64,000 bases of DNA from Escherichia coli (lineage in GTDB: Bacteria; Pseudomonadota; Gammaproteobacteria; Enterobacterales; Enterobacteriaceae), in assembly GCF_003019035.1 (NCBI RefSeq), contig NZ_CP027447.1, one strand, 5' to 3'. Shown piece by piece: positions 23,069 through 44,192 of the stretch. A program made the translations under genes and the position numbers. The notes under the pieces are model-generated. The model was not told where the DNA came from and did no database searches. It saw only the letters and a program-made list of their open reading frames with translations. The stretch's first letter is position 1. Each line of letters opens with the position of its first letter.

Positions 23069-23181
23069 CTTTTGGATCTTTATATAAAATAAACTTGGGA
23101 GCATAACGCCATCAGGTCTTAAACACTACCGAATCATCAATAAACATCCCCCGTTAACAAAACACAGTTCAGTTCACATAA

Positions 23182-23412
23182 CATCCCTGTTATCCCACAC
23201 ATATCTGCTGGCCGAACGACGCCAGTGCGCGTACGGAGGCAAGAGCAGCCCTGCACATGGCAGCGCTTGTGGTAACCTGGTTTAATCCGGTGATAAAGGC
23301 GTTTTACATGCATCTGTCAGCAGCCGGAAAAACCAAAAAAGTGGCGCTGGTTGACTGTATGCGTAAATTGCTGACCATCCTGAACGCAATGCTCAGAAAG
23401 AACGAAGAGTGA
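23182..23412 (+). pseudogene. 3' fragment of an IS110-family transposase gene (remnant)
   Basis: Open frame translating ...ARTEARAALHMAALVVTWFNPVIKAFYMHLSAAGKTKKVALVDCMRKLLTILNAMLRKNEE*, resembling the conserved C-terminus of IS110/IS116/IS902 transposases; no N-terminal catalytic domain present. Confidence 0.55.
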
Positions 23413-23419
23413 AATGAAT

Positions 23420-24220: not shown

Positions 24221-24222
24221 AT

Positions 24223-25206: not shown

Positions 25207-25277
25207 TTAAGCAACGGGGTTCGAGAGGTTAGTCTCTCATTGAGTTTGCGCCCCACTGAAACTTTGATAATCGTTAC

Positions 25278-26426: not shown

Positions 26427-26446
26427 CGCTGTCGCTGAATGAGTTT

Positions 26447-28126
26447 GTGATGAAATTATTTAAATCAATTTTACTGATTGCCGCCTGTCACGCGGCGCAG
26501 GCCAGCGCGGCCATTGATATTAACGCTGACCCAAACCTTACAGGAGCCGCGCCGCTTACCGGTATTCTGAACGGGCAACAGTCGGATACGCAAAACATGA
26601 GCGGCTTCGACAATACCCCGCCGCCCGCACCGCCGGTGGTAATGAGCCGTATGTTTGGTGCTCAACTTTTCAACGGCACCAGCGCGGATAGCGGTGCGAC
26701 GGTAGGATTCAACCCTGACTATATTCTGAATCCGGGTGATAGCATTCAGGTTCGCTTGTGGGGTGCGTTCACCTTTGATGGTGCATTACAGATTGATCCC
26801 AAAGGTAATATTTTTCTGCCAAACGTTGGTCCGGTGAAAGTTGCCGGGGTTAGCAATAGTCAGTTGAACACTCTGGTTACATCAAAAGTGAAGGAAGTGT
26901 ACCAGTCCAACGTCAACGTCTACGCCTCCTTATTACAGGCGCAGCCAGTAAAAGTGTACGTGACCGGATTTGTGCGTAATCCTGGTCTGTATGGCGGTGT
27001 GACGTCTGATTCGTTACTCAATTATCTGATCAAGGCTGGCGGCGTTGATCCAGAGCGCGGAAGTTACGTTGATATTGTGGTCAAGCGCGGTAACCGCGTG
27101 CGCTCCAACGTCAACCTGTACGACTTCCTGCTGAACGGCAAACTGGGGCTTTCGCAGTTCGCCGATGGTGACACCATCATCGTCGGGCCGCGTCAGCATA
27201 CTTTCAGCGTTCAGGGCGATGTCTTTAACAGCTACGACTTTGAGTTCCGCGAAAGCAGCATTCCCGTAACGGAAGCGTTGAGCTGGGCGCGCCCTAAGCC
27301 TGGCGCGACTCACATTACGATTATGCGTAAACAGGGGCTGCAAAAACGCAGCGAATACTATCCGATCAGTTCTGCACCAGGCCGTATGTTGCAAAATGGC
27401 GATACCTTAATCGTGAGCACTGACCGCTATGCCGGCACCATTCAGGTGCGGGTTGAAGGCGCGCACTCCGGTGAACATGCCATGGTACTGCCTTATGGTT
27501 CCACTATGCGTGCGGTTCTGGAAAAAGTCCGCCCGAACAGCATGTCGCAGATGAACGCGGTTCAGCTTTATCGCCCATCAGTGGCTCAGCGTCAGAAAGA
27601 GATGCTGAATCTCTCGCTGCAAAAGCTGGAGGAAGCCTCACTTTCTGCCCAGTCATCCACCAAAGAAGAAGCCAGCCTGCGAATGCAGGAAGCACAACTG
27701 ATCAGCCGCTTTGTGGCGAAAGCACGCACCGTGGTTCCGAAAGGTGAAGTGATCCTCAACGAATCCAATATTGATTCTGTTCTGCTTGAAGATGGCGACG
27801 TCATCAATATTCCGGAGAAAACATCGCTGGTTATGGTTCATGGCGAAGTGCTGTTCCCGAACGCGGTGAGCTGGCAGAAGGGTATGACCACCGAGGATTA
27901 CATCGAGAAATGTGGTGGCCTGACGCAAAAATCGGGTAACGCCAGAATTATCGTCATTCGTCAGAACGGTGCTGCCGTCAACGCGGAAGACGTGGATTCA
28001 CTCAAGCCGGGCGATGAGATTATGGTTCTGCCGAAATATGAATCGAAAAATATTGAAGTTACCCGTGGTATTTCCACCATCCTCTATCAGCTGGCGGTGG
28101 GTGCAAAAGTGATTCTGTCTTTGTAA
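26447..28126 (+). CDS. kpsD: Capsule export outer-membrane/periplasmic protein KpsD (OPX family)
   Basis: 559-aa ORF with signal peptide. Confidence 0.85.
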   Translation: MMKLFKSILLIAACHAAQASAAIDINADPNLTGAAPLTGILNGQQSDTQNMSGFDNTPPPAPPVVMSRMFGAQLFNGTSADSGATVGFNPDYILNPGDSIQVRLWGAFTFDGALQIDPKGNIFLPNVGPVKVAGVSNSQLNTLVTSKVKEVYQSNVNVYASLLQAQPVKVYVTGFVRNPGLYGGVTSDSLLNYLIKAGGVDPERGSYVDIVVKRGNRVRSNVNLYDFLLNGKLGLSQFADGDTIIVGPRQHTFSVQGDVFNSYDFEFRESSIPVTEALSWARPKPGATHITIMRKQGLQKRSEYYPISSAPGRMLQNGDTLIVSTDRYAGTIQVRVEGAHSGEHAMVLPYGSTMRAVLEKVRPNSMSQMNAVQLYRPSVAQRQKEMLNLSLQKLEEASLSAQSSTKEEASLRMQEAQLISRFVAKARTVVPKGEVILNESNIDSVLLEDGDVINIPEKTSLVMVHGEVLFPNAVSWQKGMTTEDYIEKCGGLTQKSGNARIIVIRQNGAAVNAEDVDSLKPGDEIMVLPKYESKNIEVTRGISTILYQLAVGAKVILSL

Positions 28127-28135
28127 GGAGTTGAA

Positions 28136-28876
28136 ATGAGCAAAGCTGTTATTGTCATCCCGGCTCGTTATGGCTCATCGCGTCTGCCGGGTAAGCCGCT
28201 ACTCGATATTGTCGGCAAACCGATGATCCAGCATGTTTACGAGCGTGCGTTACAGGTGGCGGGCGTCGCAGAAGTTTGGGTGGCAACAGACGATCAGCGT
28301 GTTGAAAAGGCCGTGCAGGCATTTGGCGGGAAAGCCATCATGACGCGCAACGATCATGAATCCGGCACCGATCGGCTGGTCGAGGTGATGCATAAAGTCG
28401 AGGCAGATATCTACATTAACCTGCAGGGCGACGAACCAATGATTCGCCCGCGGGATGTAGAAACGCTGTTACAAGGAATGCGTGATGACCCCGCGTTGCC
28501 AGTGGCAACGCTATGCCACGCGATTTCTGCCGAAGAAGCGACCGAGCCAAGCACGGTAAAAGTGGTGGTAAATACCCGCCAGGATGCGCTTTATTTCAGC
28601 CGTTCGCCTATTCCGTATCCGCGTAATGCTGAAAAAGCGCGCTACCTGAAACACGTTGGTATTTACGCTTATCGTCGCGATGTGCTGCAAAACTACAGCC
28701 AGTTACCGGAGTCCATGCAGGAGCAGGCAGAATCACTGGAGCAGCTGCGGTTGATGAGCGCGGGGATCAACATCCGCACATTTGAGGTTGCCGCAACCGG
28801 TCCGGGCGTCGACACCCCAGCATGCCTGGAAAAAGTGCGCGCCCTGATGGCACAGGAACTGGCTGAAAACGCATGA
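28136..28876 (+). CDS. kpsU: CMP-Kdo synthetase (capsule-specific KdsB paralogue)
   Basis: 246-aa [25 protein letters not shown]. Confidence 0.85.
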
Positions 28877-30900
28877 TTGGCATTTTCTCGTCCGGTATCT
28901 GGCGTATTCCGCATCTGGAGAAATTTCTGGCGCAACCGTGCCAGAAACTTTCTCTGCTGCGCCCTGTTCCGCAAGAAGTTGATGCTATCGCCGTGTGGGG
29001 ACATCGTCCCAGCGCGGCGAAACCAGTCGCCATCGCCAAAGCAGCGGGAAAACCCGTCATTCGTCTGGAAGATGGATTTGTGCGTTCGCTGGATCTTGGC
29101 GTCAATGGCGAGCCGCCGCTTTCTCTGGTGGTGGATGATTGTGGCATTTACTACGATGCCAGCAAGCCTTCAGCACTGGAGAAACTGGTACAGGATAAAG
29201 CCGGAAATACAGCTCTGATAAGCCTGGCCAGAGAAGCGATGCACACCATCGTGACCGGGGATTTGTCGAAATATAACCTGGCACCTGCGTTTGTGGCTGA
29301 TGAGTCAGAACGTTCAGACATCGTTCTGGTTGTCGATCAGACATTTAATGATATGTCAGTGACGTATGGCAATGCTGGCCCGCATGAGTTTGCTGCCATG
29401 CTGGAAGCTGCGATGGCGGAAAATCCTCAAGCCGAAATTTGGGTGAAGGTGCATCCGGATGTCCTGGAAGGAAAGAAAACAGGTTATTTCGCTGATCTGC
29501 GTGCCACGCAACGAGTACGTTTGATTGCCGAGAATGTCAGCCCGCAGTCGCTGTTGCGACACGTTTCCCGGGTTTACGTCGTGACATCCCAATACGGCTT
29601 TGAAGCCTTGCTGGCAGGAAAACCAGTAACATGTTTCGGCCAGCCCTGGTATGCAGGCTGGGGCTTAACCGACGATCGCCATCCGCAGTCCGCTTTGTTA
29701 TCTGCCCGACGCGGTTCTGCCACGCTGGAGGAACTTTTTGCCGCTGCATACCTGCGTTACTGTCGCTATATCGATCCGCAAACGGGAGAAGTAAGCGATC
29801 TATTTACCGTACTGCAATGGCTGCAATTACAACGTCGACATCTGCAACAGCGTAATGGTTATTTATGGGCGCCAGGCTTAACGCTGTGGAAGTCAGCGAT
29901 CCTGAAACCTTTCTTACGAACGGCGACAAACCAGCTGAGTTTTTCACGTCGCTGTACTGCGGCAAGCGCCTGCGTGGTATGGGGTGTAAAGGGAGAACAG
30001 CAATGGCGAGCCGAAGCGCAACGAAAATCACTGCCGTTATGGCGAATGGAAGATGGTTTTCTGCGTTCATCCGGACTTGGCTCTGACCTTTTGCCGCCGC
30101 TATCGTTGGTGCTGGATAAACGCGGGATCTACTATGACGCCACGCGCCCCAGCGACCTGGAAGTGCTGATTAATCACAGCCAGTTAACGCTGGCGCAGCA
30201 GATGCGAGCTGAAAAATTACGCCAGCGGCTAGTTGAAAGTAAACTGAGCAAGTACAACCTGGGGGCCGATTTCTCTCTACCAGCCGAAGCCAAAGATAAA
30301 AAAGTTATCCTGGTGCCGGGTCAGGTAGAGGACGATGCCTCTATTAAAACAGGCACTGTCTCGATTAAGAGCAACCTTGAGTTATTACGCACAGTACGCG
30401 AGCGCAATCCGCACGCTTACATTATTTATAAACCGCACCCGGATGTACTGGTGGGGAATCGCAAGGGCAATATTCCGACAGAACTAATTGCTGAACTCGC
30501 TGATTATCAGGCACTGGACGCAGATATTATTCAATGCATTCAGCGCGCAGATGAAGTGCACACCATGACATCATTGTCCGGGTTTGAAGCGTTATTACAT
30601 GGCAAGCAAGTTCATTGTTACGGCCTGCCCTTCTATGCCGGTTGGGGTTTAACCGTTGATGAACATCACTGCCCGCGCCGCGAACAAAAATTAACGTTAG
30701 CAGATTTGATCTATCAGGCGTTGATTGTTTATCCAACCTATATCCACCCAACACGGCTACAACCTATTACGGTTGAAGAGGCGGCGGAATATTTGATCCA
30801 GACGCCGCGCAAGCCGATGTTTATTAGAAAAAATAATATTTACAGAGTTATTAACATTTACCGTAAGTTAATCATGTTCTGCAAAGTAAGACTGGGCTAA
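28873..30900 (+). CDS. kpsC: Capsule beta-Kdo transferase KpsC
   Basis: 675-aa ORF with duplicated domain architecture; start overlaps kpsU stop. Confidence 0.85.
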
Positions 30901-30934
30901 ACAATTTCATTGTTGACTATTACGCAAATTATTT

Positions 30935-32107
30935 ATGCAAGGTAATGCACTAACCGTTTTATTATCCGGTAAAAAATATCTGCTATTGCAGGGACCGATG
31001 GGACCTTTTTTCAATGACGTCGCCGAATGGTTAGAGTCATTAGGCCGTAACGCTGTGAATGTTGTGTTCAACGGTGGAGATCGTTTTTACTGCCGCAATC
31101 GACAATACCAGGCTTACTACCAGACACCGAAAGAGTTTCCCGATTGGTTGCGAGATCTCCACCGACAATATGACTTTGACACCATCCTCTGCTTTGGTGA
31201 CTGCCGCCCATTGCATAAGGAAGCAAAACGGTGGGCAACGTCGAAAGGGATCCGCTTTCTGGCATTTGAAGAGGGGTATTTACGTCCGCAATTTATTACT
31301 GTTGAAGAAGGCGGAGTAAACGCATATTCATCACTACCGCGCGATCCGGATTTTTATCGTAAGTTGCCAGATATGCCTGCACCGCACGTTGAGAACTTAA
31401 AACCTTCAACGATGAAACGTATTGGCCATGCGATGTGGTATTACCTGATGGGCTGGCATTACCGTCATGAGTTCCCTCGCTACCGCCACCACAAATCGTT
31501 TTCCCCCTGGTATGAGGCTCGTTGCTGGGTTCGTGCATACTGGCGCAAGCAACTTTACAAGGTAACACAGCGTAAGGTATTACCGAGGTTAATGAACGAG
31601 CTGGATCAACGTTATTATCTTGCCGTTTTGCAGGTGTATAACGATAGCCAGATTCGTAACCACAGTAATTATAACGATGTGCGTGACTATATTAATGAAG
31701 TCATGTACTCATTTTCGCATAAAGCGCCGAAAGAAAGTTATTTGGTGATCAAACATCATCCGATGGATCGTGGTCACAGACTCTATCGACCATTAATTAA
31801 ACGGTTGAGTAAGGAATATGGCTTAGGTGAGCGAGTCATATACGTGCACGATCTCCCGATGCCGGAATTATTACGCCACGCAAAAGCGGTGGTAACAATT
31901 AACAGTACGGCGGGGATCTCTGCGCTGATTCATAACAAACCACTCAAAGTGATGGGCAATGCCCTGTATGACATCAAAGGCTTGACGTATCAAGGGCATT
32001 TGCACCAGTTCTGGCAGGCCGACTTTAAACCGGATATGAAGCTGTTTAAGAAGTTTCGGGAGTATTTATTGGTGAAGACACAGATTAATGCGGTTTATTA
32101 TGGTTGA
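30935..32107 (+). CDS. kpsS: Capsule beta-Kdo transferase KpsS
   Basis: 390-aa ORF; conserved region 1 terminal gene. Confidence 0.85.
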   Translation: MQGNALTVLLSGKKYLLLQGPMGPFFNDVAEWLESLGRNAVNVVFNGGDRFYCRNRQYQAYYQTPKEFPDWLRDLHRQYDFDTILCFGDCRPLHKEAKRWATSKGIRFLAFEEGYLRPQFITVEEGGVNAYSSLPRDPDFYRKLPDMPAPHVENLKPSTMKRIGHAMWYYLMGWHYRHEFPRYRHHKSFSPWYEARCWVRAYWRKQLYKVTQRKVLPRLMNELDQRYYLAVLQVYNDSQIRNHSNYNDVRDYINEVMYSFSHKAPKESYLVIKHHPMDRGHRLYRPLIKRLSKEYGLGERVIYVHDLPMPELLRHAKAVVTINSTAGISALIHNKPLKVMGNALYDIKGLTYQGHLHQFWQADFKPDMKLFKKFREYLLVKTQINAVYYG

Positions 32108-32330
32108 AAGTGCACTCAAAAAACAAATCATCTATAAAGGTATTAAAATCTCTCTCGAGAGGATTAAACCTGCAATAAAACAATATTATAAGACCTTCAT
32201 CCCCATTATAACACAGATAAATTTATACAGTATTCATAAGGGAACCGACTGGATATTTCCAATATAGTATTACCTTATTGCGTGCTCAGTGTAACTCTTA
32301 GCAATCGAAGGTCAATACAATGAAGCATGT

Positions 32331-33092
32331 TTATTTAAAATTCTGATTGTATCTATCAATAAGTATCTCATCATTACATAAATACGTATCAACAAATGAT
32401 TCTATACGAGAAACTGAAATACGCTCAGATGTATCATTAGAACCGTGATTCATAATATAGCAAACAACTGGAGTCTTCATAGCTAATACACTTCTTCCGA
32501 ATGCCAATGAAGATTCTGGATATTTTGTATGGTCTTTTAGTGAAAATAGAAATGTCCCTTTCTCTTCCTGATTTGAACAATCCTTGGCATCTAACTTAGA
32601 TATAAAACAACTACCACAATTTTTATAGAATATCTTTGTAACTCCATCAAGGTAAGCGATCTTCTCCCTGCGGGCATCAAACACATAACCTGTATAAAAT
32701 GCCAGATCATCAGCATCAGGATTTCGGGAAAACATATATTCTACTTGATAAGTGAAATCTTTGGATACCAGATCATCTGCATCAATAAACATGAAATAGT
32801 CACCAACTTTTGCAGTTTCGAGTATTTTTCGACGCGCGACATTTTTTTTTGATGCTTTGTCTGCCATGTAACCATTTTTATCTTCCGGGACGGGATGCCA
32901 GACTTTGATAAACTCAGTCCGTGGATTCTGATATCCACTTATAAACTCAGGAATGTCATGACATGCAACGACAATGCGATAGTCGCCACCCGCCCCCTCA
33001 ATTGACTTGATTGTAGCTTCCAGTCGAACGCAAACTTCATTCCAATCGTTAGAAGTCTGTTTTGCCCTGAGTGGGATTGCATAATGAAACAT
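32331..33092 (-). CDS. Putative glycosyltransferase or capsule-modifying enzyme (DxD motif, FIDADD)
   Basis: 253-aa ORF, AT-rich, between kpsS and kpsT; DADD motif suggests nucleotide-sugar transferase; function inferred only. Confidence 0.45.
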   Translation of the reverse strand: MFHYAIPLRAKQTSNDWNEVCVRLEATIKSIEGAGGDYRIVVACHDIPEFISGYQNPRTEFIKVWHPVPEDKNGYMADKASKKNVARRKILETAKVGDYFMFIDADDLVSKDFTYQVEYMFSRNPDADDLAFYTGYVFDARREKIAYLDGVTKIFYKNCGSCFISKLDAKDCSNQEEKGTFLFSLKDHTKYPESSLAFGRSVLAMKTPVVCYIMNHGSNDTSERISVSRIESFVDTYLCNDEILIDRYNQNFK

Positions 33093-33171
33093 TTTTATTC
33101 CTTATATACGTTAAATTAATAATATTATAATAAAGAGAACTACCTAATGTAAATAATATAAAATATTACAG

Positions 33172-33837
33172 CTAGGTAATATTCTCTTCTTCAGTGTATT
33201 TTTTTATGGCCTGTTCAACATCGTCATAATAATGAATAGCATTATCTCTACCCAAAAAAAGCGCAACATCACAGTATTCTTTTAATGAGTTAAGGCTGTG
33301 CGAAACCATAACAAAATTAGATTCAGAACGCCTAGCTTTAAATATTTTTGCACATTTCTCTCTAAATCGAGCATCACCAACCGCGGTAATTTCATCGACC
33401 AAATAGTAATCAAATTTGAACGCCATGCTTAATCCAAATCCTAGACGAGATCGCATCCCTGATGAATAAGACTTGATCGGCATATCAAAATATGTACCTA
33501 ATTCCGAAAATTCTTCTACAAAATTAATTTTTTCTTTAAGATCTTTTTTATCTGCATATAAACGCGCTACAAACTTTACATTTTCCCTTCCAGTCAGACT
33601 TCCTTGAAAACCACCAGAAATTCCAACAGGCCAAGAAATAGTTTTGTTTGTATAAACGGCCCCCTTGTCTGGTCTATCTATACCACCTATTATACGAAGA
33701 AGAGTGGATTTACCTGCTCCATTACGTCCAAGTAGCGCAATACTTTTACCACTTGGTAATTCAACATTTAAATCTTTAAATACATAATGTCGTCCTTGTG
33801 GTGTGAGATATGATTTAGTTAAGTTTTTAATTATGAT
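33172..33837 (-). CDS. kpsT: Capsule ABC exporter ATP-binding protein
   Basis: ORF 33172..33897; Walker A GRNGAGKST, ABC signature YSSGMRSRL, Walker B YYLVDE; likely start at MIIIKNLTKSY. Confidence 0.8.
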   Translation of the reverse strand: MIIKNLTKSYLTPQGRHYVFKDLNVELPSGKSIALLGRNGAGKSTLLRIIGGIDRPDKGAVYTNKTISWPVGISGGFQGSLTGRENVKFVARLYADKKDLKEKINFVEEFSELGTYFDMPIKSYSSGMRSRLGFGLSMAFKFDYYLVDEITAVGDARFREKCAKIFKARRSESNFVMVSHSLNSLKEYCDVALFLGRDNAIHYYDDVEQAIKKYTEEENIT

Positions 33838-34035
33838 CATAAAGTTAATAACACCTTGTGTATTGCTATACAATATAGGAACTCCGCATCTACCCAAGCA
33901 GTGATAAAAATAGGCCCATTATAAATGTTTTATAAATTTTAATTATAGGGAAACACATTAGAATGGGCCATGTAAATTATCGATACATCATCATAATTAA
34001 CAGTTTGGGCGTCATGACTCCCTTTAATTATACAA

Positions 34036-36798
34036 CTATATAAAAGCAATTTCTTTACTAAATCCTTTTTTAATAATTTTACAATTTTTCAAGTAATCAT
34101 CGTCTTCGATCCTCCATGTATGAGAATTCGTATTTCCATAACGCATTTGAATAAAGTTATATTTATCTGATGAGTAAATAATGAAGCCATTTTTCTTGCA
34201 TTCTTTGAGGAAATTAGTGTCTTCACCACGGTTTATGCATTCAAACTTAATTTTTTCAAAAACCTCTTTTCTAATTACTAAACTTCCTCCTGAAATGAAA
34301 TCAGAATAACGATTATCTTTTCCTGGTTGCTTAACTGCCATGATGTCTTTAGATTCTACATAGCAAAAATAAGAATCTTTGCCTACAATGTCGGCACCAC
34401 TAAATTTAAAAGCTTGCAAAGCGTCTAATAAATAGTTATCACCATAAAAATCATCATCATCCATCTTGGCAAGATAATCTCCTGAGGCATGAGTAACACC
34501 ATAATTAAGACACTCACCAAGAGTTATATCCTGTGGTAACTGATATACTTTAACATTAGGCATTCCATTTATCTTGTTTTTAACCACATTTATATCAAAA
34601 CTATCATTATTTAATATAAGTAATAACTCTTTATTCACGTGAGATTGTCGATGATAATTATCAAGCATCATATCAATATTATTGGGACGATTAGTACACA
34701 TAATTATTGATACTTTATCATCTTGAATGACCTTATTTTTAACTCCTATAGTCTTTAGAATCTGCTCAAAACGTTGTTGATACGAATGATACCGAATACA
34801 ATGACGAGCGGCCAAATGTCCTAAACGTTCACGTTCAATATCAGACTCAAGCAACCGTTGAACAATAGTTTTCGCTTCGAGTTTGTCTTTAACAATATGT
34901 ACATGTTCACCAAGCATAGCTTTCATACCATCAGAATGAGTTGATACAACTGGTGTACCGCAAGCCAAAATTTCGAAAACCCGACGGGAGAACATAGTTG
35001 GTGAGTCCTGAACAGTGTTGATATTCAGGAATAGCTTGTATTGTCTATAAGCAGTGAGCATCTGTTCATAGTCAAGTGAACCAACTATAAATGGTTGGTA
35101 TTTTTCAGGAAAGATTCGTGATTCTCTATGTTTGGTTGCATGCAGCATTCGGTCGTATATATGCAATTCACGATGTGCTGTTCCATCAAGGACAATTTCT
35201 GTTTGTGCTCGACGAGTATCATGTCCATTATTATACCAACTACCGGCAAAACATACTTCGTAAACTGGAAGTTTTTTATTCTTATCACGAATTGGGTTGT
35301 GGATAGCTGGTTGTGCCGCAAAAGGAAGTGCGTATACTCTATTATGTCCAACACGAGACTTGTATTTTTCTAAGATATTCCCATCAGTTGTGAATATATA
35401 GTCACAATCAGCTGCAACATCAATAAAGACTTCGTAGTTGGTTGGATCCTCCTTATTCCAAAATACTACAGGAATATTCTTGGATTGACAGTATTTGATA
35501 ACTTTGCGAAGTGGATCACCCAAATGTTTTTTATAACTCACCATGGTATATGTCCACTCACCATTATTACCATTCCAAGCTGATTCAAGAAATAACATTA
35601 CTGGGTGTGATTCGTCGATCTCTGATTTCCAATTTTGCTTGGTTAACGGAATAAAGTTTGCCTCATAGCGAAAGCATTCATAAGTAAACTTATCACAGAT
35701 CGTTACAACATTGATATGCTGATTTCGCAAGTGTGCATGTGATTCAAAGACAGGCCAACTAATCTCATTATCATGTTTTACCTCATTATAAACACCAACA
35801 CTTTCAAGCAATTGCTTCTTGACACGACAGTTAAGAGGGGGGTGATCAAATTTGCCTTTACGCTTAGCCGCACGAATCTTTATTAGCTTTTGAGGCAAGG
35901 AAAGAAAACCTTTCAGGCTGCTACGTTTAGTCTCTACCATAGTTTTGCCTAAACGATAGTATAAAGACCTTTCTAGTTTCTGCTTCTCGTAGAGAGCTGT
36001 AGCAAGCTTGTCTTTAAGCTCGTCAATTTTTTGCTTTTGTATTTGTGGTGATTCTGGTAATGAGAGAATTCGCGTCTCGAAAGCTTTTGTCAGCGTTTTT
36101 GCTTTCACTTCAAAGTGTCGTATAATTTCCTCATGGCTTTGGCAATTATCAAGCCTTATTGCATTCACGGGTAAAGTTTCTTCAATGTAGAGTTTAATAG
36201 GTTCAATACGAAGTGAACCTTGCCCTTTAAAACGTAATGCCATACTAAAGTAACGCGCATCAGGCATTGTATCGAATTCAATATGATTAATACCGTTATA
36301 AATAAGTTGATATTTGTGAGTAATTCTTTTATTTTCATCATACTGGATAATAAAAATTGCACATTCAGGTCGATTCTCTCCATATGATGTATTTAATACT
36401 AATCGATACTTGAATCCACCATTGATACGCCAGGAGTTTTTGTCCAATGGCAACCCATTAATATTCATACTGCCAGTTTGTAAATAAAAAGAGTCTCCAT
36501 TTATCAAATCCATTTCTACAAACAAACTTCCATCTGACTCTATATGCAAATGCTTATTACGACTATTATCAGCAGGTAATAACCATTCGGTCGATGATTC
36601 TATATTAGAAAGACCATTGAAAGGTAAAAACGGATAGTTTTGCTCTTTCCATTCTATTTTATTGGCCTTACGTGATAATAGACGAAAAAGTTTTTCGAAA
36701 TGACTATCATAGATTGAAAATGCCACCTGAAGTTGGTTAATTTCATCCCCAGTGTGTAATTTATTTTTTACTTTTTTCTTAGTAAGACGATTTGACAT
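34036..36798 (-). CDS. Large three-domain putative capsule polymerase: N-terminal unknown domain, central CgeB-like (GT1-fold) domain, C-terminal GT2 domain
   Basis: 920-aa ORF; central region paralogous to the 329-aa ORF at 39371..40360 (shared ...VFWNKEDP...FAAQP...SRRVFE...G.P... pattern); C-terminus has GT2 hallmarks (VSIIMCTNRP, DDDDF). Confidence 0.6.
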   Translation of the reverse strand: MSNRLTKKKVKNKLHTGDEINQLQVAFSIYDSHFEKLFRLLSRKANKIEWKEQNYPFLPFNGLSNIESSTEWLLPADNSRNKHLHIESDGSLFVEMDLINGDSFYLQTGSMNINGLPLDKNSWRINGGFKYRLVLNTSYGENRPECAIFIIQYDENKRITHKYQLIYNGINHIEFDTMPDARYFSMALRFKGQGSLRIEPIKLYIEETLPVNAIRLDNCQSHEEIIRHFEVKAKTLTKAFETRILSLPESPQIQKQKIDELKDKLATALYEKQKLERSLYYRLGKTMVETKRSSLKGFLSLPQKLIKIRAAKRKGKFDHPPLNCRVKKQLLESVGVYNEVKHDNEISWPVFESHAHLRNQHINVVTICDKFTYECFRYEANFIPLTKQNWKSEIDESHPVMLFLESAWNGNNGEWTYTMVSYKKHLGDPLRKVIKYCQSKNIPVVFWNKEDPTNYEVFIDVAADCDYIFTTDGNILEKYKSRVGHNRVYALPFAAQPAIHNPIRDKNKKLPVYEVCFAGSWYNNGHDTRRAQTEIVLDGTAHRELHIYDRMLHATKHRESRIFPEKYQPFIVGSLDYEQMLTAYRQYKLFLNINTVQDSPTMFSRRVFEILACGTPVVSTHSDGMKAMLGEHVHIVKDKLEAKTIVQRLLESDIERERLGHLAARHCIRYHSYQQRFEQILKTIGVKNKVIQDDKVSIIMCTNRPNNIDMMLDNYHRQSHVNKELLLILNNDSFDINVVKNKINGMPNVKVYQLPQDITLGECLNYGVTHASGDYLAKMDDDDFYGDNYLLDALQAFKFSGADIVGKDSYFCYVESKDIMAVKQPGKDNRYSDFISGGSLVIRKEVFEKIKFECINRGEDTNFLKECKKNGFIIYSSDKYNFIQMRYGNTNSHTWRIEDDDYLKNCKIIKKGFSKEIAFI

Positions 36799-36849
36799 AT
36801 CTATATTCTTTCAATTAAAAAAGTGTTTTCCAGACCAAAATAATATATA

Positions 36850-38103
36850 TTAATTGGCAGCATTTACAAAATCTAGTATTGTAGCGGTTGTATACTTTTT
36901 ATTAATAAGACCTTTAAATTCTTTATGCTTAACTAAAACTAGAACAATATCTGCTTGTTCCAGTGCCTCAGAGAGAGAAACCAATTTAACGTTATTACGT
37001 CCTTTTAAAGCTGATGGCAAATCATCAATATTAGGTTCAACTACTAAAAGCCGATTAGCAGGGTTATCTGCTAATCTTTTGGTAATTTCTAATGCAGGGC
37101 TTTCTCGTAGGTCATCAATATCCGGTTTAAATGCCAATCCCAAACAAGCGATCTTTGGGTTTCTTAGGCCGACAACAACTTGGCTAATTTTTTCAATCAC
37201 ATATTGAGGTTTATAATCGTTGACTAAGCGGGCCTGGTGAATTAACTTTGCAAGTTCTGGATTTTGGTTAACTATAAACCAAGGGTCAACTGCTATGCAA
37301 TGACCGCCAACACCACAGCCAGGCTGAAGAATATTAACTCGCGGATGCCGATTAGCCAATGAAATTAACTCCCATACATTTATACCTTGTTTATCGCAGA
37401 TTAGTGACAGTTCATTTGCAAAAGCAATGTTCACATCCCGAAAAGCATTTTCCGTTAACTTACTCATCTCAGCGGTACGCGCATTAGTGGCAATACATTC
37501 ACCTTTTTTAACGAAAAGTTTGTATAATTCAATTGCTGAAGTTGTACTGTGCTCATCCAGTCCCCCAATGATCCGGTCATTTTCAACTAATTCACGTATA
37601 ACTTGTCCTGGTAACACTCGCTCGGGGCAATGCGCAATGCAAATATCAGCCTTCAATCCATTTTTCATCTGATGAGGAAATGTTAAATCTGGACGCTCTT
37701 CTGCTAACCATTTAGCCATTTGCTCAGTAGCACCAACAGGCGAAGTGGACTCTAAAACAACCAGATTACCCTTTTCAAGTAGTGGCGCTAATGCACGTGA
37801 AGCTGATTCAATATATTTTAAATCAGCCTCAAAGTTCTTTCCTTTAAACGGTGTCGGTACAGCCATGAGGAATGCATCAGCTTTTTGCGGTTCTGTAAAG
37901 GCTTTCAAATATCCTTGGCTAACAGCAGACTTCACTAACTCCTGCAGTCCTGGCTCAACAATATGAATATTCCCTTGATTAATTGTATCTACAGCGTACT
38001 TGTTGATATCTACACCAACAACGTGAATATTGTTGCTAGCAATCACTGCTGCAGTAGGTAAACCAATATACCCTAAACCAATAACAGAAATACGTTTAAA
38101 CAT
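36850..38103 (-). CDS. UDP-N-acetyl-D-mannosamine dehydrogenase (WecC/Cap5O-like)
   Basis: 417-aa ORF with N-terminal Rossmann motif GLGYIGLPTA and UDP-sugar dehydrogenase catalytic Cys region. Confidence 0.75.
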   Translation of the reverse strand: MFKRISVIGLGYIGLPTAAVIASNNIHVVGVDINKYAVDTINQGNIHIVEPGLQELVKSAVSQGYLKAFTEPQKADAFLMAVPTPFKGKNFEADLKYIESASRALAPLLEKGNLVVLESTSPVGATEQMAKWLAEERPDLTFPHQMKNGLKADICIAHCPERVLPGQVIRELVENDRIIGGLDEHSTTSAIELYKLFVKKGECIATNARTAEMSKLTENAFRDVNIAFANELSLICDKQGINVWELISLANRHPRVNILQPGCGVGGHCIAVDPWFIVNQNPELAKLIHQARLVNDYKPQYVIEKISQVVVGLRNPKIACLGLAFKPDIDDLRESPALEITKRLADNPANRLLVVEPNIDDLPSALKGRNNVKLVSLSEALEQADIVLVLVKHKEFKGLINKKYTTATILDFVNAAN

Positions 38104-38185
38104 AATATTGAATCACTCTCTTGGACTAATTTTAATTAACATTAGTATAGATAAAAAAAGCTGTAATAATTTGCTGTTAGTTTAT

Positions 38186-39331
38186 TTATTCCAGTTGATA
38201 TCTAAAACCTAAAACAGCATCTACAATTCGCTGACTTGTTTTGCCATCACCATAAGGATTATTTGCATGACTCATTGACTGATATGTGACATCATCATCT
38301 AATAGACGAATAGTTTCACTCACGATTTCCTTATCACAAGTGCCTACTAAACGCACTGTTCCTGCTTTAACCGCAGCAGGCCGTTCAGTTGTATCACGCA
38401 TACATAGAACTGGCTTTCCTAATGACGGAGCTTCTTCTTGAATCCCGCCAGAATCTGTTAATATCAGATAACATTGCTTCATTAGATATACAAATGGTAA
38501 ATAATCCTGAGGTTCAATTAGATAAATATTTTCTAATTTTTGCAAATTTCTTTTCACTGGTTGTTGCACATTTGGATTCAAATGTACTGGGTAAATGATT
38601 TGAACGTCATCTCGTTGAGACAATTTAGCTAAAGCATTGCAAATTCGTTCAATTCCTTCTCCATGATTTTCTCTGCGGTGTAAGGTGACAAGGATCATTT
38701 TTTTATTTTTATCGATAAAATCAAATTGAGACTCCAACTGTTTTCTTAATATGGAGTTTTGTTCAATTTTGTTTGATACAGACACCAAAGCATCAATAAC
38801 TGAATTCCCTGTTAAAAAAATATTTTCTGGTGGAATATTTTCCATTATAAGATTTTTCAATGCACCAGCAGTCGGAGCATAGTGTTGGTCAGCAATTCCT
38901 CCCGTTAGTCGACGCATACCTTCTTCAGGCCATGGAGAATAAATATTTCCTGTGCGTAGACCGGCTTCAACATGGCCTACAGCAATATGATGATAATAAG
39001 CAGCTAATGTTGCTGCGAATGAAGTTGCTGTATCTCCATGGACAAGGATACGATTTGGTGTAAATTTAGAAAATACCGTTTTTAACCCTTGTAAGATAGC
39101 TGTTGTTACATCGGTTAAATCTTGACCAGGCCTCATAATATTGAGATCATAGTCAGGCTTAATCTCAAATAATTTTAACACTTGATCCAACATCTCACGA
39201 TGCTGTCCAGTTACACATACTCGCGCGTCTATTAGATTATTATTTTCAAATGCCTTAACAATAGGGGCCATTTTTATAGCCTCTGGTCTAGTACCAAATA
39301 TTATAAGTATTTTTTGCTGTATCATTTTCAT
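38186..39331 (-). CDS. UDP-N-acetylglucosamine 2-epimerase, non-hydrolysing (WecB-like)
   Basis: 381-aa [28 protein letters not shown]...; strong family resemblance. Confidence 0.8.
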
Positions 39332-39370
39332 CCTTCTTTAACATTAAAGAATAAACATTACATTTTTTAA

Positions 39371-40360
39371 CTAATAAAGTTCAAAATCCCGATTCATCTG
39401 CTGAAGGCGATGATGCCAGGTATGTTGAGATAATACAATTTCTTTTGCGCGTTCCCCCAAGACAGTTCTTTTATTTATGTCTTTTTGCAATTCCAAACAC
39501 CATTCTCGCGCGGATTGACCATTCGCAATTGAAATAATACTATCCTCAAATATACGATTCATAGCTATTGATGGACTGCTGATTATAGAACACCCTGAAG
39601 CACCTAATTCAAAAACCCTCCGTGAAAGCATTGTTGTAGATTTTCTAATTGTATTAAAATTTAGATAGATTTGATATTGAGTGTATGCCTGTGCAACTAA
39701 ATTTAAAGGAATTGATGGTCGACAATATACATGTAAATCATTTGGATAACTACAGTTATTTTTTTTATTCCAAAATCGATCATAAATAACCAACCCACAT
39801 CTTGAAAGTGAGTGTAGAACATCATATTGCATTTGGCTCCTTTCACTAAACTGATTACCATAGTAGCCACCAAAAAATGCAACACCATATTTCCGCTTTA
39901 CTTGAGGAACAGACTTATACCAATGAGGTTGCGCTGCAAACATCAGTACACCTACTGACTGGCACCTGTGGTCTAGTAATGAGTCATATCGATTAATTGA
40001 ATCCGCGTCTGTTGTATATATTATATCAAAAAAAGAAGCTGAATCAGAAAACCTTTCAAAATGGAATGGATCTTCTTTATTCCAAAATACAGTTTTTATT
40101 TTTTTTCTTTTGCAATATTCAACTATTTTCTTTAATTCATTGTTATTATCTGGTTTGTTTTCATAACTTGCTATTTTACCTTGCCAGCTATTCCTATATC
40201 CTCTCCAAGCAGATTCAACAAACAAAAAATCAGGTTTAAACAAGCGTAATTTCCAACGCCAATCAAAGGGAGTTAAAGGCAAAATATCTGCATCTGGAGC
40301 CAAACCATATGTCGTAAACTCATCTGCGATTAATGCAATACAAGGTTTTTTTTTCTTCAA
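39371..40360 (-). CDS. CgeB-like glycosyltransferase-fold protein
   Basis: 329-aa ORF paralogous to the central domain of the 920-aa protein; apparent TTG start followed by an A9 tract. Confidence 0.5.
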   Translation of the reverse strand: MKKKKPCIALIADEFTTYGLAPDADILPLTPFDWRWKLRLFKPDFLFVESAWRGYRNSWQGKIASYENKPDNNNELKKIVEYCKRKKIKTVFWNKEDPFHFERFSDSASFFDIIYTTDADSINRYDSLLDHRCQSVGVLMFAAQPHWYKSVPQVKRKYGVAFFGGYYGNQFSERSQMQYDVLHSLSRCGLVIYDRFWNKKNNCSYPNDLHVYCRPSIPLNLVAQAYTQYQIYLNFNTIRKSTTMLSRRVFELGASGCSIISSPSIAMNRIFEDSIISIANGQSAREWCLELQKDINKRTVLGERAKEIVLSQHTWHHRLQQMNRDFELY

Positions 40361-40729
40361 AATAATTCCCGCTGAATATTATTGAGTTCATACTAACAAA
40401 GAATCATTGATTGAATTTAAAGCATGTTATAAATACACTTTGACATGATTGCATCCAAAGCATCATAATTAAATAAATGTATTATTTTCCAACAAGGTCA
40501 TCTTATATAGATTATTATATATAAATGAGTGATATGGAATTATATTGGAACGAACAGAATGCGACTTAAAACATAACGCATTTGAGCATTAATAAAAATA
40601 TTACTTATTATAACATTAAAAAATACTTTCTTATGCCGTGCCATTATCTTTTAACTAGCACAGTTTTTATTATATTAATATTATTAATATAATAAAATCT
40701 AAACCGTTATTTATTTTATTCACAACAAC

Positions 40730-41728
40730 TTATATACCTAAAATATATTTAACCTTCCTGTACATTGTATCATAACGATCTACATGGCCAGGTTTATTAT
40801 CAAAGTATATGCTATAATCTCGAATATCATCCCCCCTATCAATACATCGTTGTATAAATGATAAAAGCAATGTTGTGTCGTAATGGCATTCATCACTAAT
40901 GGCGTTTTTATATTTATCTCTAAAAATACGATAATTCTCTTCTCTTGCACTATAATAACTATCATTGTGCTTTTTGTCATGATATAAATGAAGAGCTAAA
41001 TCTTTCTGAAGCAATATATCTAAACAATACTCTCCCAAATATTTTCTGAACCCAGTAGTAAATAACGGAGAATGACATGGTTTATCTATCAAAAAATCAG
41101 ATTTTAGTTTTGACAAAAAGTGATGGTTATATAAACGTATCAAAAAATCAAAATCTTCATACCCATGACCTTGAAAGCTTTCATCAAACCCATGTATTTT
41201 TTTATAGCTTTCTGACTTCAAAATTGTAATAGAGGAGGGACTTGCTAAATGTAAAAACTCTTTTCTTGAAAAATCAAAATATCTTTTTTTTAATAACTCT
41301 ACTGATATCTTTTTTTTAATTAATATGTGCGTCCCATATTTTGTCAAATATAAACACGGTAAAATATAGAATGGTTTTACTCCTTTTTGTATTTTATTTT
41401 TATATTTTTCGAATAAAACAACATCAGGATATATATCCACATCAAGCAATATGATAAATTCAGTATCAACTAATTTGAATGCAAAATTTCTTAGCAATGA
41501 AGTATTTATGTATTTATAACTACAATCGTATGAATTGACAATAACATGGTTATATTCACTCAAGGCTTCTATAAATACATGATCGTATTTAGTAAAGCGA
41601 TTTCCGTGACCAAATATAATTTTAAAATTATTTTCCCTAGTTGCTTCGGCAATACTAATTGCTTTCTGAATAATATCTTTAGGTCTGCGTTTTAGGTCTA
41701 TTGGGATTATAGCGGTTAACATTTTCAA
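40730..41728 (-). CDS. Putative GT2-family glycosyltransferase
   Basis: 332-aa ORF with AIIPI...LLDVDIYP and GYEDFDF motifs; extremely AT-rich. Confidence 0.45.
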   Translation of the reverse strand: MKMLTAIIPIDLKRRPKDIIQKAISIAEATRENNFKIIFGHGNRFTKYDHVFIEALSEYNHVIVNSYDCSYKYINTSLLRNFAFKLVDTEFIILLDVDIYPDVVLFEKYKNKIQKGVKPFYILPCLYLTKYGTHILIKKKISVELLKKRYFDFSRKEFLHLASPSSITILKSESYKKIHGFDESFQGHGYEDFDFLIRLYNHHFLSKLKSDFLIDKPCHSPLFTTGFRKYLGEYCLDILLQKDLALHLYHDKKHNDSYYSAREENYRIFRDKYKNAISDECHYDTTLLLSFIQRCIDRGDDIRDYSIYFDNKPGHVDRYDTMYRKVKYILGI

Positions 41729-41822
41729 ACTATTTGTAAGCCATAACAGATGTATGTTACAAAATCCATAGTATTTTCAATTGTGGCATTTCCTTTTTTA
41801 TTAAATTGCAAAGCCACACTAA

Positions 41823-42599
41823 TCATGATGTCAGCATTGCCTCTTCACGCGTTCGGTATAACGCCAGACCGATGAACAGGGTGACCAGAGTGAACATTGC
41901 AAGGTAGTTTAGACTCACGCCTTCGCTGATATAGCCAGGCATAACTGCCTCGCGGCTTAACTCTACGACATGCACTAATGGATTCCAGAGTAGATATGAC
42001 CAGTATTGCTTCGGAATCGAGTGTAGAGGGAACATGATGCAGGAGATGAAATACAGCGGCTTAAGCAGTATCGGCAGGACCTTTTGCATTTCAGGGAAAG
42101 TCTTACCAACGACCATGAATATTAAGCCAACGCCACATGAAAGAATGATTAACAAACTCCAGGTAAGCACAAGTTGTAAAAAGTTTGTTATTTCGAAATA
42201 TTCGCCTGCCATCCAGACAATAAGCATAAGCAATATATAAACAGCAACATAAATCAGTGTCTCAAGCAATGCACGCGCAATGATCGTATCGATGGGTTTT
42301 ACTGGTCGATAATTAAACAGCCCCTGATTCGCTTCAATAGCACCTACAGAACGATTGCTGATACTGCTAAAGATAAAAAAGGGAATCAGGCCATTAAGTA
42401 AAAACACCGGGAATGAGATGTCTGGCATCGTGCGGTGCATAATGTAACCAAAAATGCCCAACAGTATCAGCAAATGCGCAGAGGGTTCGAGAATCGCCCA
42501 CAGATATCCCAGACGGAACTTACCAAAGCGTGTTCGTATTTCTCGTAGAAATAATGCCTCTACGGTGACTTTCTGGACTTCAAATCCACTTCTTGCCAT
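41823..42599 (-). CDS. kpsM: Capsule ABC exporter permease
   Basis: ORF 41823..42659; start MARSGFEVQKVTVEALFLREIRTRFGK; ABC-2 permease. Confidence 0.85.
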   Translation of the reverse strand: MARSGFEVQKVTVEALFLREIRTRFGKFRLGYLWAILEPSAHLLILLGIFGYIMHRTMPDISFPVFLLNGLIPFFIFSSISNRSVGAIEANQGLFNYRPVKPIDTIIARALLETLIYVAVYILLMLIVWMAGEYFEITNFLQLVLTWSLLIILSCGVGLIFMVVGKTFPEMQKVLPILLKPLYFISCIMFPLHSIPKQYWSYLLWNPLVHVVELSREAVMPGYISEGVSLNYLAMFTLVTLFIGLALYRTREEAMLTS

Positions 42600-42630
42600 T
42601 TGATGATGTGATCCTAATCTCTTCAGGTAC

Positions 42631-42642
42631 GCTACCGCCCTT
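42631..42642 (-). promoter_or_regulatory. ops (operon polarity suppressor) / JUMPstart element for RfaH-dependent antitermination
   Basis: Minus-strand sequence GGCGGTAGCGTA about 30 nt upstream of the kpsM start; matches the ops core GGCGGTAG known upstream of kpsM. Confidence 0.6.
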
Positions 42643-43637
42643 GGCTTAACAGCTACCAATACACTGGAGGTAATGCTTATTTGTAACTGGATAAAATTTA
42701 CTCAGACGGTTTGACCTTTTTAATAGCCGCAAAAAATTTCAGCAGAAATTATTTCCGCAGGGATAAATAGATCTATTTCCGTCTCGTTTCTTCTAATCCA
42801 TTCTTCAGGCATGAATGTATTCGGTCTTCTGGTAATTTCAGAAAACTGGCCGTTTTAGAATGTAGAGTTAATTTCTCAGGAAATTATTTTTTGTTCTTAC
42901 TGTTAACTACTTGATTATAATACCCCATATGGATTTTATGCGTAACAATACCTGCAATCTGTTTCAAACCAGAACGCATGCGATTGATTACCAATAAATT
43001 GTTTAGCGAGAAACTATTTCCCTATTTAAAATTCACTCATGTACTTCTTATTTATATCTACAGCACCCTCTTTACAGTCACATTTGTGATTTACATCACA
43101 TTTAAACGGTGTTATTTAAGCCCCATTAATAATTCCGTGAGTAATTATTTTCGTCAATTAAAATATACATCTTGATTATTTTGTGCGTTTATTTTAACCA
43201 GCGTTACAGCCAGCATTATCCCTCAGTAGATATACCTGAGCAGACATTTCTTAAAATCGACGAATAGTTTCCCTGGAAATTATTATGCTTATTTGAAATT
43301 CCCTTTCTGATTATCTCCAGTAATTTTACTAATTTCCAGGCTACACAAAATACAGATCACATAAGAATTATCCTATATGTTTTGACCTATCAATTGTTAC
43401 TCAATGATTTATTACAACTATTAATAATCATAATGTGTCAAAACACTTAAGCATCTTTACAGTCTTAGAAAGGTGTCGATTAACGAAGGCTACATGGTGA
43501 AAAACAGGTTCCTTCAGTGTTACCGAATATTCCGTGGTGGTCTGGAGGGAGATAATTCTTGCTACATCGAAACTCAGCCCGGTGAGCGGGTTTGACAGTT
43601 CCGCACTCACCATTGGGCTAAGGGTTATCAGGTGGGG

Positions 43638-44192
43638 TTAAGGAAATGGCAATACCTCCCCCCGTCCAAACTCCAGTCGCTGCACATTCACCATCCCAGG
43701 CTTCTCAGCAGCACTGACATCAATTTGTGTCACCCGCAGCGCATATTTTTCATCCAGTGCGTTTAACCAGTTCAGCAGGTCATTAAACACCACAGGTTCT
43801 ATCCAGACTTGAATATTCTCCCCTCGCTCGGCTATTCGCTTAATGACCACTGAATGCGCCGAAGCACTGTCGCTGATGACCCGCGATACCTGTGCTGGCG
43901 TTGTCGTGGCGGATTTTCGCGCCGCAATAATATCCGGCGCAGTGCTCTTCAGTCGCGCGTTCATCGCCACGAGCTGCTGCAACATCGTCTCCTGTTGTTC
44001 TATCCGTTCGCTCAACGGCTGCCAGATGAGGACGTAATATCCGGCGCTAAACAGGAACACTACCGCTGCCAGTAACATGCCTTTTTCACGCGGAGAACGT
44101 CCCGCCAGGTGTTGTGTCAGCCAGTGTTCGCCACGGCTTAACTGGCGTTCACGCCATTGCTGAAAATAGTGAATAAATTTATCGCGTAACAT
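43638..44192 (-). CDS. gspM: Type II secretion system protein M
   Basis: 184-aa ORF, single TM segment, last gene of the gsp operon. Confidence 0.75.
   Translation of the reverse strand: MLRDKFIHYFQQWRERQLSRGEHWLTQHLAGRSPREKGMLLAAVVFLFSAGYYVLIWQPLSERIEQQETMLQQLVAMNARLKSTAPDIIAARKSATTTPAQVSRVISDSASAHSVVIKRIAERGENIQVWIEPVVFNDLLNWLNALDEKYALRVTQIDVSAAEKPGMVNVQRLEFGRGEVLPFP

Follow-up and report, generated by a model that had tools for sequence, protein, structure and literature searches.

The capsule locus in the 64-kb window (the whole stretch of E. coli DNA analysed, 64,000 nucleotides) is, judged from its sequence, the pheV-linked group 2 (2A) kps locus already listed as K106 and, relative to the classical K7 locus, a recombinant sister. 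Together, K7, K52 and K106 are a small E. coli family whose kpsT is found downstream of the polymerase gene and does not overlap kpsM. We put the probability of the full account, which joins identity with K106, displacement of kpsT, recombination with respect to K7 and a single RfaH-dependent operon, at about 0.85.

The locus occupies the pheV-gsp (yghD) site, with tRNA-Phe at 22957–23032 and yghD, gspL and onwards from 43638. Its plus strand carries the group 2A kpsF-E-D-U-C-S block (24187–32107), that is, region 1 plus kpsC and kpsS, the conserved export and Kdo-linker genes; in the ORF list the block runs from kpsF (24187–25206) to kpsS (30935–32107, 390 aa), and the gene names agree with the RefSeq annotation of the identical SCU-301 locus. 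KpsC and KpsS are 97% identical at the amino acid level to their counterparts in the K7 locus and other group 2 loci. As in the group 2A pattern, kpsM and kpsT are present in one copy each on the minus strand, convergent to region 1 and thus to kpsS. The minus-strand order is kpsM (41823–42599), a PF10111 GT2 gene (40730–41722), a CgeB-like glycosyltransferase gene (39371–40360), wecB (38186–39331), wecC (36850–38103), the gene for a 920-aa glycosyltransferase (34036–36798), kpsT (33172–33840) and a 253-aa GT-A gene (32331–33092). This differs from the textbook group 2 order, in which kpsM and kpsT adjoin and the whole of region 2 is bounded by kpsT and kpsS; here, by the ORF calls, kpsM and kpsT are 7,982 bp apart with five genes between them. 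The first-pass annotation had placed about 8 kb of biosynthetic genes in this gap and had named the genes in this order, and both the distance and every gene call are upheld by the ORFs, NCBIfam, Pfam and RefSeq names. Two of its gene ends need correction. It closed kpsT at 33837, 3 nt short of the ATG start at 33840 (the mechanical ORF extends to 33897), and it opened kpsM at 42659, an upstream TTG; since this TTG overlaps the JUMPstart element, the kpsM start is taken as the ATG at 42599.

The match to K106 extends to ORF order, domains and sizes (253, 920, 417, 329 and 330 aa for K106_7, K106_9, K106_10, K106_12 and K106_13, respectively). In the K106 entries of the kTYPr catalogue and its supplement (Miravet-Verde et al., Nat Microbiol 2026, PMC13171606; reference GCF_019104395, contig NZ_JAHRXU010000002.1; lineage G2A), a 253-aa GT-A protein stands at position 7, the 920-aa protein at 9, a 417-aa ManNAc dehydrogenase at 10, wecB at 11, a 329-aa protein with PF13524 at 12 and a 330-aa protein with PF10111 at 13. 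Our kpsT and kpsM fall at positions 8 and 14, both unannotated in the catalogue. The locus measures 18,375 bp in SCU-301 versus 18,378 bp in the K106 reference. The assignment is based on ORF sizes, domains, order and locus length, in which we detected no difference from K106, together with matches in complete genomes. The same 10.9 kb is present at 99.5–100% identity in five independent complete RefSeq genomes, so the layout is not an assembly artefact, and misassembly as the source of the split can be ruled out.

The K106-type locus is rare (5/5426 complete genomes); the K7 locus is found in about 48 complete genomes and the K52 locus in an estimated 40 or so, both with kpsM and kpsT apart. 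The split is also stated in the kTYPr paper, and with that 2026 catalogue kpsM-kpsT adjacency is no longer defining for group 2A (PMC13171606). The novelty that the first-pass annotation implied therefore falls away, because the catalogued K106 locus shows the same gene order and content, and the long-described K7 and K52 loci have the same split. Its query as to whether any serotype shares the kpsM-biosynthesis-kpsT order is answered by K7, K52 and K106; since the layout is already catalogued in all three, it is ordinary and not a new discovery.

The reading of the locus depends on the 222-aa ORF at 33172–33840 being the capsule-exporter ATPase, as had been proposed. Over its full length it is 74% identical at the amino acid level to the KpsT of K5, 80% to that of K7 and 78% to that of K52, and residues 1–215 match PDB 8tsi_A, the KpsT chain of the KpsMT-KpsE structures, with E=3e-83. 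All motifs are intact in the translation: Walker A (GRNGAGKST), signature (YSSGM), Walker B (FDYYLVDE) and H-loop (VSH). No second kpsT or kpsM, nor a remnant of either, was found in the 64-kb window (tblastn, E<=10), which leaves the displaced kpsT as the sole kpsT both there and in the matching genomes, and as the only ATPase partner for KpsM in them. The permease itself is the canonical allele (NF050053 at 1.2e-55), 99.6% identical to K5 KpsM and 100% identical to K7 KpsM. It might be argued that the distal ORF is a different ABC ATPase or that the whole cluster is degenerate and non-functional, given that NCBIfam has no KpsT-specific model and that the best named hits for this ORF, to TagH and Wzt, stay below the cutoffs (1e-34 to 1e-38). 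However, the full-length identity to E. coli KpsT, the match to 8tsi_A, the intact motifs and the lack of any other partner for KpsM rule out the non-KpsT ATPase, and all 14 of the 14 ORFs of the locus are intact in the five matching genomes, which leaves this alternative as a whole with almost no credence. On its sequence the 222-aa ORF is a true KpsT, and by analogy with characterised exporters we infer that it would, with KpsM, energise capsule export.

Between the two transporter genes lie predicted functions for the synthesis of an aminouronic acid and its incorporation into a polymer. The 417-aa wecC-type product matches NF008286 (UDP-ManNAc dehydrogenase) at 3.9e-200, with 664.8 bits versus a cutoff of 459, and the wecB-type product, a non-hydrolysing UDP-GlcNAc 2-epimerase, matches TIGR00236 at 4.8e-151 (379 aa from the RefSeq start, 381 aa as the mechanical ORF). 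The 920-aa protein, a putative polymerase, joins a CgeB-like GT-B part to a GT2 part (Pfam DUF3880 at residues 459–522, Glyco_trans_1_2 at 571–681 and Glycos_transf_2 at 698–825). The 329-aa protein is a ‘CgeB family protein’ in RefSeq, and the 330-aa PF10111 GT2 is a ‘galactosyltransferase-related’ protein whose homologues occur in 107/5426 genomes, including the K52 and K116 loci; in K52 the gene likewise directly follows kpsM and is 74% identical at the DNA level. The 253-aa protein, a ‘glycosyltransferase family A protein’ in RefSeq, matches Pfam GT2 weakly (E=0.013), and the kTYPr supplement entry for K106_7 gives cd00761 at 6e-06 (PMC13171606); its gene was found in 5/5426 complete E. 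coli genomes. WecB and WecC would supply UDP-ManNAcA, and on the Kdo linker of KpsS/KpsC the transferases would assemble a K7-like polymer that contains ManNAcA and probably differs from K7 in linkage or side group. The K7 repeat unit is ManNAcA-Glc, O-acetylated. Our literature search on the ST167/K7 capsule and the K7 structure returned only Tsui et al. 1982, as cited in the kTYPr supplement.

Comparison with K7 (=K56; for instance in MS6198 and ATCC 8739; loci L002 and L005) shows where the two loci part. In K7, too, the whole biosynthetic block separates kpsT from kpsM. DNA identity is at least 99% from about 35.0 to 43.7 kb, that is, from inside the 920-aa gene through kpsM and the leader, and about 75% from 34,037 to about 34,900, placing the breakpoint at about 34.9–35.0 kb. 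The K106-specific segment thus includes the 3′ ∼0.9 kb of the 920-aa gene, which encodes the GT2 domain (about 75% DNA identity between the two loci). Correspondingly, the 920-aa protein is 90.4% identical to its K7 counterpart, with differences confined to residues ∼600–920; the kTYPr supplement gives 90.8% for K106 versus K7 (PMC13171606). Further on, the K7 order is polymerase, DUF6270 gene, kpsT, kpsS, whereas here it is polymerase, kpsT, GT-A gene, kpsS: the DUF6270 gene of the classical K7 set is absent and an unrelated GT-A gene is present instead. The two kpsT genes are only 76% identical at the DNA level (80% at the protein level), and KpsS is 414 aa in K7 but 390 aa here. By these sequence comparisons K106 is K7 with the kpsS-proximal ∼2.9 kb replaced. 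We propose that this part of a K7-like locus was swapped for a homologous segment of about 75% identity, comprising the polymerase GT2 domain, kpsT and an accessory gene, which would have come from another locus that was already split. Since the 3′ end of the polymerase gene and kpsT are only about 75% identical at the DNA level between K7 and K106 while their linkage is kept in both, the split is neither recent nor specific to a strain, and a recent strain-specific insertion can be ruled out.

K52 (FDAARGOS_1370; L004) has the same split as well: kpsM is followed by the homologous PF10111 GT2 gene, the polymerase gene and kpsT, and its KpsT belongs to the same clade as ours. However, the K52 polymerase is a TagF-like CDP-glycerol glycerophosphotransferase and not a 920-aa two-domain glycosyltransferase, four more genes lie between kpsT and kpsS, and wecB and wecC are absent. 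Canonical group 2 loci (K5 of Nissle 1917; K116-like) share with ours kpsFEDUCS, kpsM (99.6% amino acid identity), the JUMPstart/ops leader and the pheV-gsp site, but there the kpsM stop codon and the beginning of kpsT share an ATGA overlap, and the whole of region 2 sits in the interval from kpsT to kpsS. Orthologues of the CgeB-like, wecB, wecC and 920-aa genes are found in the same order, at 61–81% amino acid identity, in Aeromonas (bestiarum-type; L015 and L013), where the CgeB-like homologue is 61% identical to the 329-aa protein and a homologue of the 253-aa GT-A, 63% identical, adjoins kpsC. The Aeromonas locus is nevertheless built differently. Its genes all run in one direction as a single cluster (kpsM-kpsT-kpsE-kpsD-region 2-kpsC-kpsS) in which kpsM adjoins kpsT; its transporter proteins are only 35–50% identical to ours, and its region 2 GC content is 49% versus 34% here. 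Two further foreign loci, L008 and L009, have adjacent kpsM-kpsT followed by a PF10111 GT2 gene and a TagF-like gene, and, kpsT aside, L008 and K52 are collinear.

From these sequences the split looks derived and old; its age is indicated by the fact that the three diverged loci K7, K52 and K106 all share it. Homology to canonical loci of the K5 and K116 types breaks off at 41820, at the stop codon of kpsM. The junction at the former kpsT start (41725–41826, minus strand) keeps the first 7 nt of kpsT, ATGATTA (the ATG of the ATGA overlap plus ATT A), and the retained ATG opens a 33-codon ORF without kpsT homology. By neighbour-joining, without bootstrap, the KpsT proteins of K7, K52 and K106 cluster together as sister to those of L008 and L009; in principle, exchange between kpsT alleles by recombination, and not one event, could account for this clade. 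No remnant of the kpsM 3′ end was detected near the displaced kpsT (tblastn, E<=10), where the upstream sequences showed no homology, and a search of the three junctions for direct or inverted repeats and IS fragments gave only AT-rich chance matches. The proposed course is that an ancestor had the order kpsM-kpsT-GT2-polymerase, that kpsT later moved beyond the polymerase block, and that in the K7/K106 branch this block would be an Aeromonas-like module of CgeB-like glycosyltransferase, wecB, wecC and 920-aa glycosyltransferase.

That K7, K52 and K106 share the split despite kpsT genes only about 75% identical at the DNA level might instead mean that the kpsM-biosynthesis-kpsT order is ancestral in this lineage and adjacency derived. 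This is very unlikely, because the nearest KpsT outgroups, L008 and L009, have adjacent kpsM-kpsT, as do the module-bearing Aeromonas locus, the system of solved structure and all other E. coli types examined, and because the split loci retain ATG ATT A from kpsT, joined to the stop codon of kpsM. The first-pass annotation had offered either a different ancestral arrangement or a rearrangement that placed biosynthetic genes between kpsM and kpsT; the end of homology at 41820, the KpsT clustering and the collinearity of L008 with K52 favour the latter. An independent origin of the split in K52 and in K7/K106, with the kpsM/kpsT junction acting as a recurrent insertion slot for foreign biosynthetic blocks, fits the position of kpsT relative to the accessory genes, which differs among K7, K106 and K52, and the ∼95-nt post-kpsM spacers of K52 and K7/K106, which cannot be aligned although both start with ATGATTA. 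AT-rich spacers are, however, expected to diverge past alignability at this distance, in both cases kpsM is followed first by the same PF10111 GT2 gene, and the KpsT alleles of all three loci cluster together, so that separate events seem unlikely. A single old displacement of kpsT accordingly remains our preferred reading of the split.

As to expression, a JUMPstart element (Rfam RF01707, 58.5 bits versus a gathering score of 35) lies at 42628–42666 on the minus strand, just upstream of kpsM in the region 3 leader, and contains an exact ops match, GGCGGTAG, at 42632–42639. In canonical loci ops within JUMPstart is where RfaH is loaded in the leader of region 3, and it is established that RfaH lets transcription from the region 3 promoter continue into region 2 (PMC8960920). 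All eight minus-strand genes are co-oriented. Terminator-like sites numbered nine versus 6.0 ± 2.4 expected, not above chance, with none in the intergenic gaps from kpsM to kpsT; likewise, counts of promoters and terminators that could split the operon did not exceed the shuffled expectation, and the intergenic gaps held no convincing candidate. By analogy with the canonical loci we infer a single JUMPstart/ops (RfaH) operon, in which one long RfaH-dependent transcript from the region 3 promoter past JUMPstart/ops would cover all eight genes, from kpsM through the five biosynthetic genes and kpsT to the GT-A gene. KpsT would then be translated from its own ribosome-binding site, uncoupled from kpsM, and would join KpsM in the usual KpsMT-KpsE-KpsD exporter. 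Function is probably unchanged by the split; K7 and K52 are serologically defined, expressed capsules with the same layout, and in the bloodstream K52 ranks within the top five K types.

As a catalogued rare K type the locus is of minor importance as a discovery. The unusual order of its genes recurs in K7 and the clinically important K52, which calls for caution in annotation and in PCR or in-silico typing that assumes kpsM-kpsT adjacency or a kpsT-bounded region 2. It also bears on how capsule diversity is assembled, with breakpoints exactly at the kpsM stop codon, within the polymerase gene and at the kpsS 3′ end, and with biosynthetic modules common to Escherichia and Aeromonas. A bolder suggestion, which we consider quite unlikely, is that kpsT is part of the exchangeable serotype cassette and not a conserved ‘region 3’ gene, one old displacement having made a second cargo slot between kpsM and kpsT that is open to whole foreign polymerase modules (here the Aeromonas-like ManNAcA module), with kpsT keeping its linkage to the kpsS-proximal accessory genes. 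If this were true, the exporter ATPase would be made only after RfaH-dependent transcription had crossed all the biosynthetic genes, and export capacity would be coupled to synthesis capacity.

ORF calls delineated a complete group 2 kps capsule locus flanked by tRNA-Phe (22957-23032) and the gsp/yghD operon (from 43638). kpsF, kpsE, kpsD, kpsU, kpsC and kpsS occupy 24187-32107 on the plus strand. The minus-strand ORFs, in transcription order, are kpsM (42599-41823; family match 1.2e-55), a 330-aa PF10111 GT2 gene (41722-40730), a 329-aa CgeB-like glycosyltransferase gene (40360-39371), wecB (39331-38186; 4.8e-151), wecC (38103-36850; 3.9e-200), the gene for a 920-aa putative polymerase (36798-34036), kpsT (33840-33172) and a 253-aa GT-A transferase gene (33092-32331). 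The family assignments of wecC, wecB and KpsM are firm at the sequence level, and the 920-aa protein combines DUF3880 and Glyco_trans_1_2, a CgeB-like architecture, with a following GT2 domain. The order from kpsM to kpsT given by the first-pass annotation stands, with two coordinates adjusted slightly: kpsM starts at the ATG at 42599, since the longer TTG-started ORF upstream overlaps the JUMPstart element, and the kpsT start is corrected to 33840. The stretch between tRNA-Phe (pheV) and kpsF downstream of it measures only 1.15 kb and contains an IS110 fragment (22957-24186); this short junction is common to 241 complete genomes. Unlike the window, SCU-301 has a large island upstream of kpsF (Ag43, CbtA toxin-antitoxin and other genes in its near part). 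A C0719 sRNA at 62360-62581 (+; full-length Rfam match, 297.6 bits) bears no relation to the capsule locus.

Judged by sequence, the ORF far from kpsM is the true kpsT. Its earlier designation as the capsule ATPase was borne out by full-length identities of 74% to K5, 80% to K7 and 78% to K52 KpsT, by a match to KpsT chain 8tsi_A of the solved KpsMT-KpsE complexes (3e-83) and by ATPase motifs that are all intact. No further kpsT was found in the window or in genomes with the same locus. The divergence of this KpsT is normal for the gene: in the kTYPr source data, K1 and K5 share 72.7% identity in KpsT and 97% in KpsM (PMC13171606). The window and K5 KpsM proteins are 99.6% identical.

The kpsM-biosynthesis-kpsT layout is already known, and the novelty implied by the first-pass annotation does not hold, the split being shared by catalogued K106, K7-type and K52-type loci. 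When 32100-43000 was compared by megablast with 5,426 complete E. coli genomes, the entire stretch was found at 99.5-100% identity in five (SCU-301, EC6563, D2, WP4-S18-ESBL-08 and 510016), and ~48 further genomes matched only from the 920-aa stop codon through kpsM. The K-specific ORFs that kTYPr gives for K106 comprise K106_7 (253 aa, GT-A), K106_9 (920 aa), K106_10 (417 aa, ManNAc dehydrogenase), K106_12 (329 aa, PF13524) and K106_13 (330 aa, PF10111) (PMC13171606), and their numbering leaves positions 8 and 14 for kpsT and kpsM. The catalogued locus lengths agree closely with the genomes, at 18,378 bp versus 18,375 bp in SCU-301 for K106 and 18,648 bp versus 18,647 bp in MS6198 for K7. MS6198 has the order kpsS, kpsT, DUF6270 gene, 920-aa gene, wecC, wecB, CgeB-like, GT2, kpsM, with kpsT again at the far end. 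The catalogue records 100% identity between K7_10 to K7_13 and the corresponding K106 ORFs, and 90.8% between K7_9 and K106_9 (PMC13171606); we computed 90.4% between the window and MS6198 920-aa proteins. FDAARGOS_1370, which fits K52 by ORF sizes, has the order kpsM, GT2, TagF-like, kpsT, four more genes, kpsS. K7 or K106 loci are present in ~55 complete genomes and K52 loci in ~40 more, the latter an estimate extrapolated from a spread of listed matches. The 253-aa GT-A is confined to the five K106 genomes of the 5,426. One of these, WP4-S18-ESBL-08 (NZ_AP022095.1 806345-818581), is probably a capsule-negative variant because an IS3-family insertion interrupts its locus.

The split had been attributed either to a different ancestral order or to a rearrangement, and the sequence evidence favours a derived layout. 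Homology to the canonical K5 (Nissle) and K116-like loci ends at 41820, with unrelated sequence beyond; the last bases before this point are the stop codon of kpsM together with ATG ATT A, the seven nucleotides with which every kpsT begins. Beyond the known E. coli loci, the proteins most similar to K106 KpsT (81-83% identical) are encoded on two foreign contigs, L008 and L009, with the order kpsM-kpsT-PF10111 GT2-TagF-like. The genes of L008 follow the K52 order one by one, apart from kpsT, which adjoins kpsM in L008. In a neighbour-joining KpsT tree, built without bootstrap support, K7, K52 and K106 form one clade, sister to L008/L009, with K116 and K5 elsewhere. An Aeromonas bestiarum-type capsule locus (L015 5637-20993; also L013 and L014) likewise has adjacent kpsM and kpsT, unlike K7/K106, in the order kpsM-kpsT-kpsE-kpsD-region 2-kpsC-kpsS, yet carries orthologues of the CgeB-like, wecB, wecC and 920-aa genes in the same order (61-81% amino acid identity) and a GT-A 63% identical to that of K106; its region 2 has a GC content of 49% versus 34% in E. 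coli. Repeats, IS scars and gene remnants that would reveal how kpsT was displaced were looked for and not found. The displacement appears to be old, because K7 and K106 kpsT and polymerase 3′ ends are only ~75% identical in DNA and yet the polymerase-kpsT linkage is kept in both. The interpretation given with the first-pass annotation is partly supported: rearrangement is the favoured alternative, but it is old, common to other types and already catalogued. The ATG that once belonged to the ATGA overlap of kpsM and kpsT now opens a 33-codon ORF (41725-41826, minus), which closes shortly ahead of the GT2 start. The ORF is kept in K7, and the equivalent spot in K52 holds one of 5 codons. The 33-codon ORF may be a mere scar or may still couple translation.

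In a comparison using 200-bp sliding windows, identity to K7 was at least 99% from ~35,000 to 43,700 and ~75% from 34,037 to ~34,900. Since kpsT is also divergent (76% identical) and the accessory genes are unrelated (GT-A versus DUF6270), K106 reads as a K7-like locus in which the kpsS-proximal ~2.9 kb, containing the polymerase GT2 domain, kpsT and the accessory gene, was replaced. The exchange has one breakpoint within the polymerase gene and a second at the kpsS 3′ end, where homology stops at 32103. This end (32001-32107) is variable, with KpsS being 390 aa in the window versus 414 aa in K7 loci, and marks the cassette boundary. The 370-bp spacer at 40361-40729 (very low GC, ~28%), between the K52-shared GT2 gene and the Aeromonas-like module, is probably a seam joining two modules, since K52 homology stops at 40767; a 19-nt AT-only palindrome lies at 40662-40700. 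Close GT-A homologues also occur as lone cargo genes within P2-like prophages on L011 (10001-10762, 79% amino acid identity) and L012 (10001-10765, 76%), the hosts being one NCBI assembly (GCA_049169235.1) and one Aeromonas media. Their location suggests that phages can carry members of this enzyme family, possibly to modify surface polysaccharides.

In canonical loci, JUMPstart/ops recruits RfaH, and transcription started at the region 3 promoter continues through kpsMT into region 2 (PMC8960920). Because the eight minus-strand genes are co-oriented and kpsM, the first of them, is preceded at a distance of ~30 nt by a JUMPstart element with the ops octamer (RF01707, 58.5 bits), and terminator-like sites are not enriched and are absent from the intergenic gaps between kpsM and kpsT, the simplest model would be one long RfaH-dependent transcript. 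kpsT, preceded by AAGGTG 13 nt upstream, would be translated from its own Shine-Dalgarno sequence without coupling to kpsM. A capsule would then be expressed from the K106 locus, its polymer presumably ManNAcA-containing and K7-like, with a linkage or side group presumably changed through the swapped GT2 domain and GT-A. That a capsule can function with the split layout is clear from K52, which ranks in the top five K types from bloodstream infection and whose estimated invasive potential is the highest (PMC13171598).
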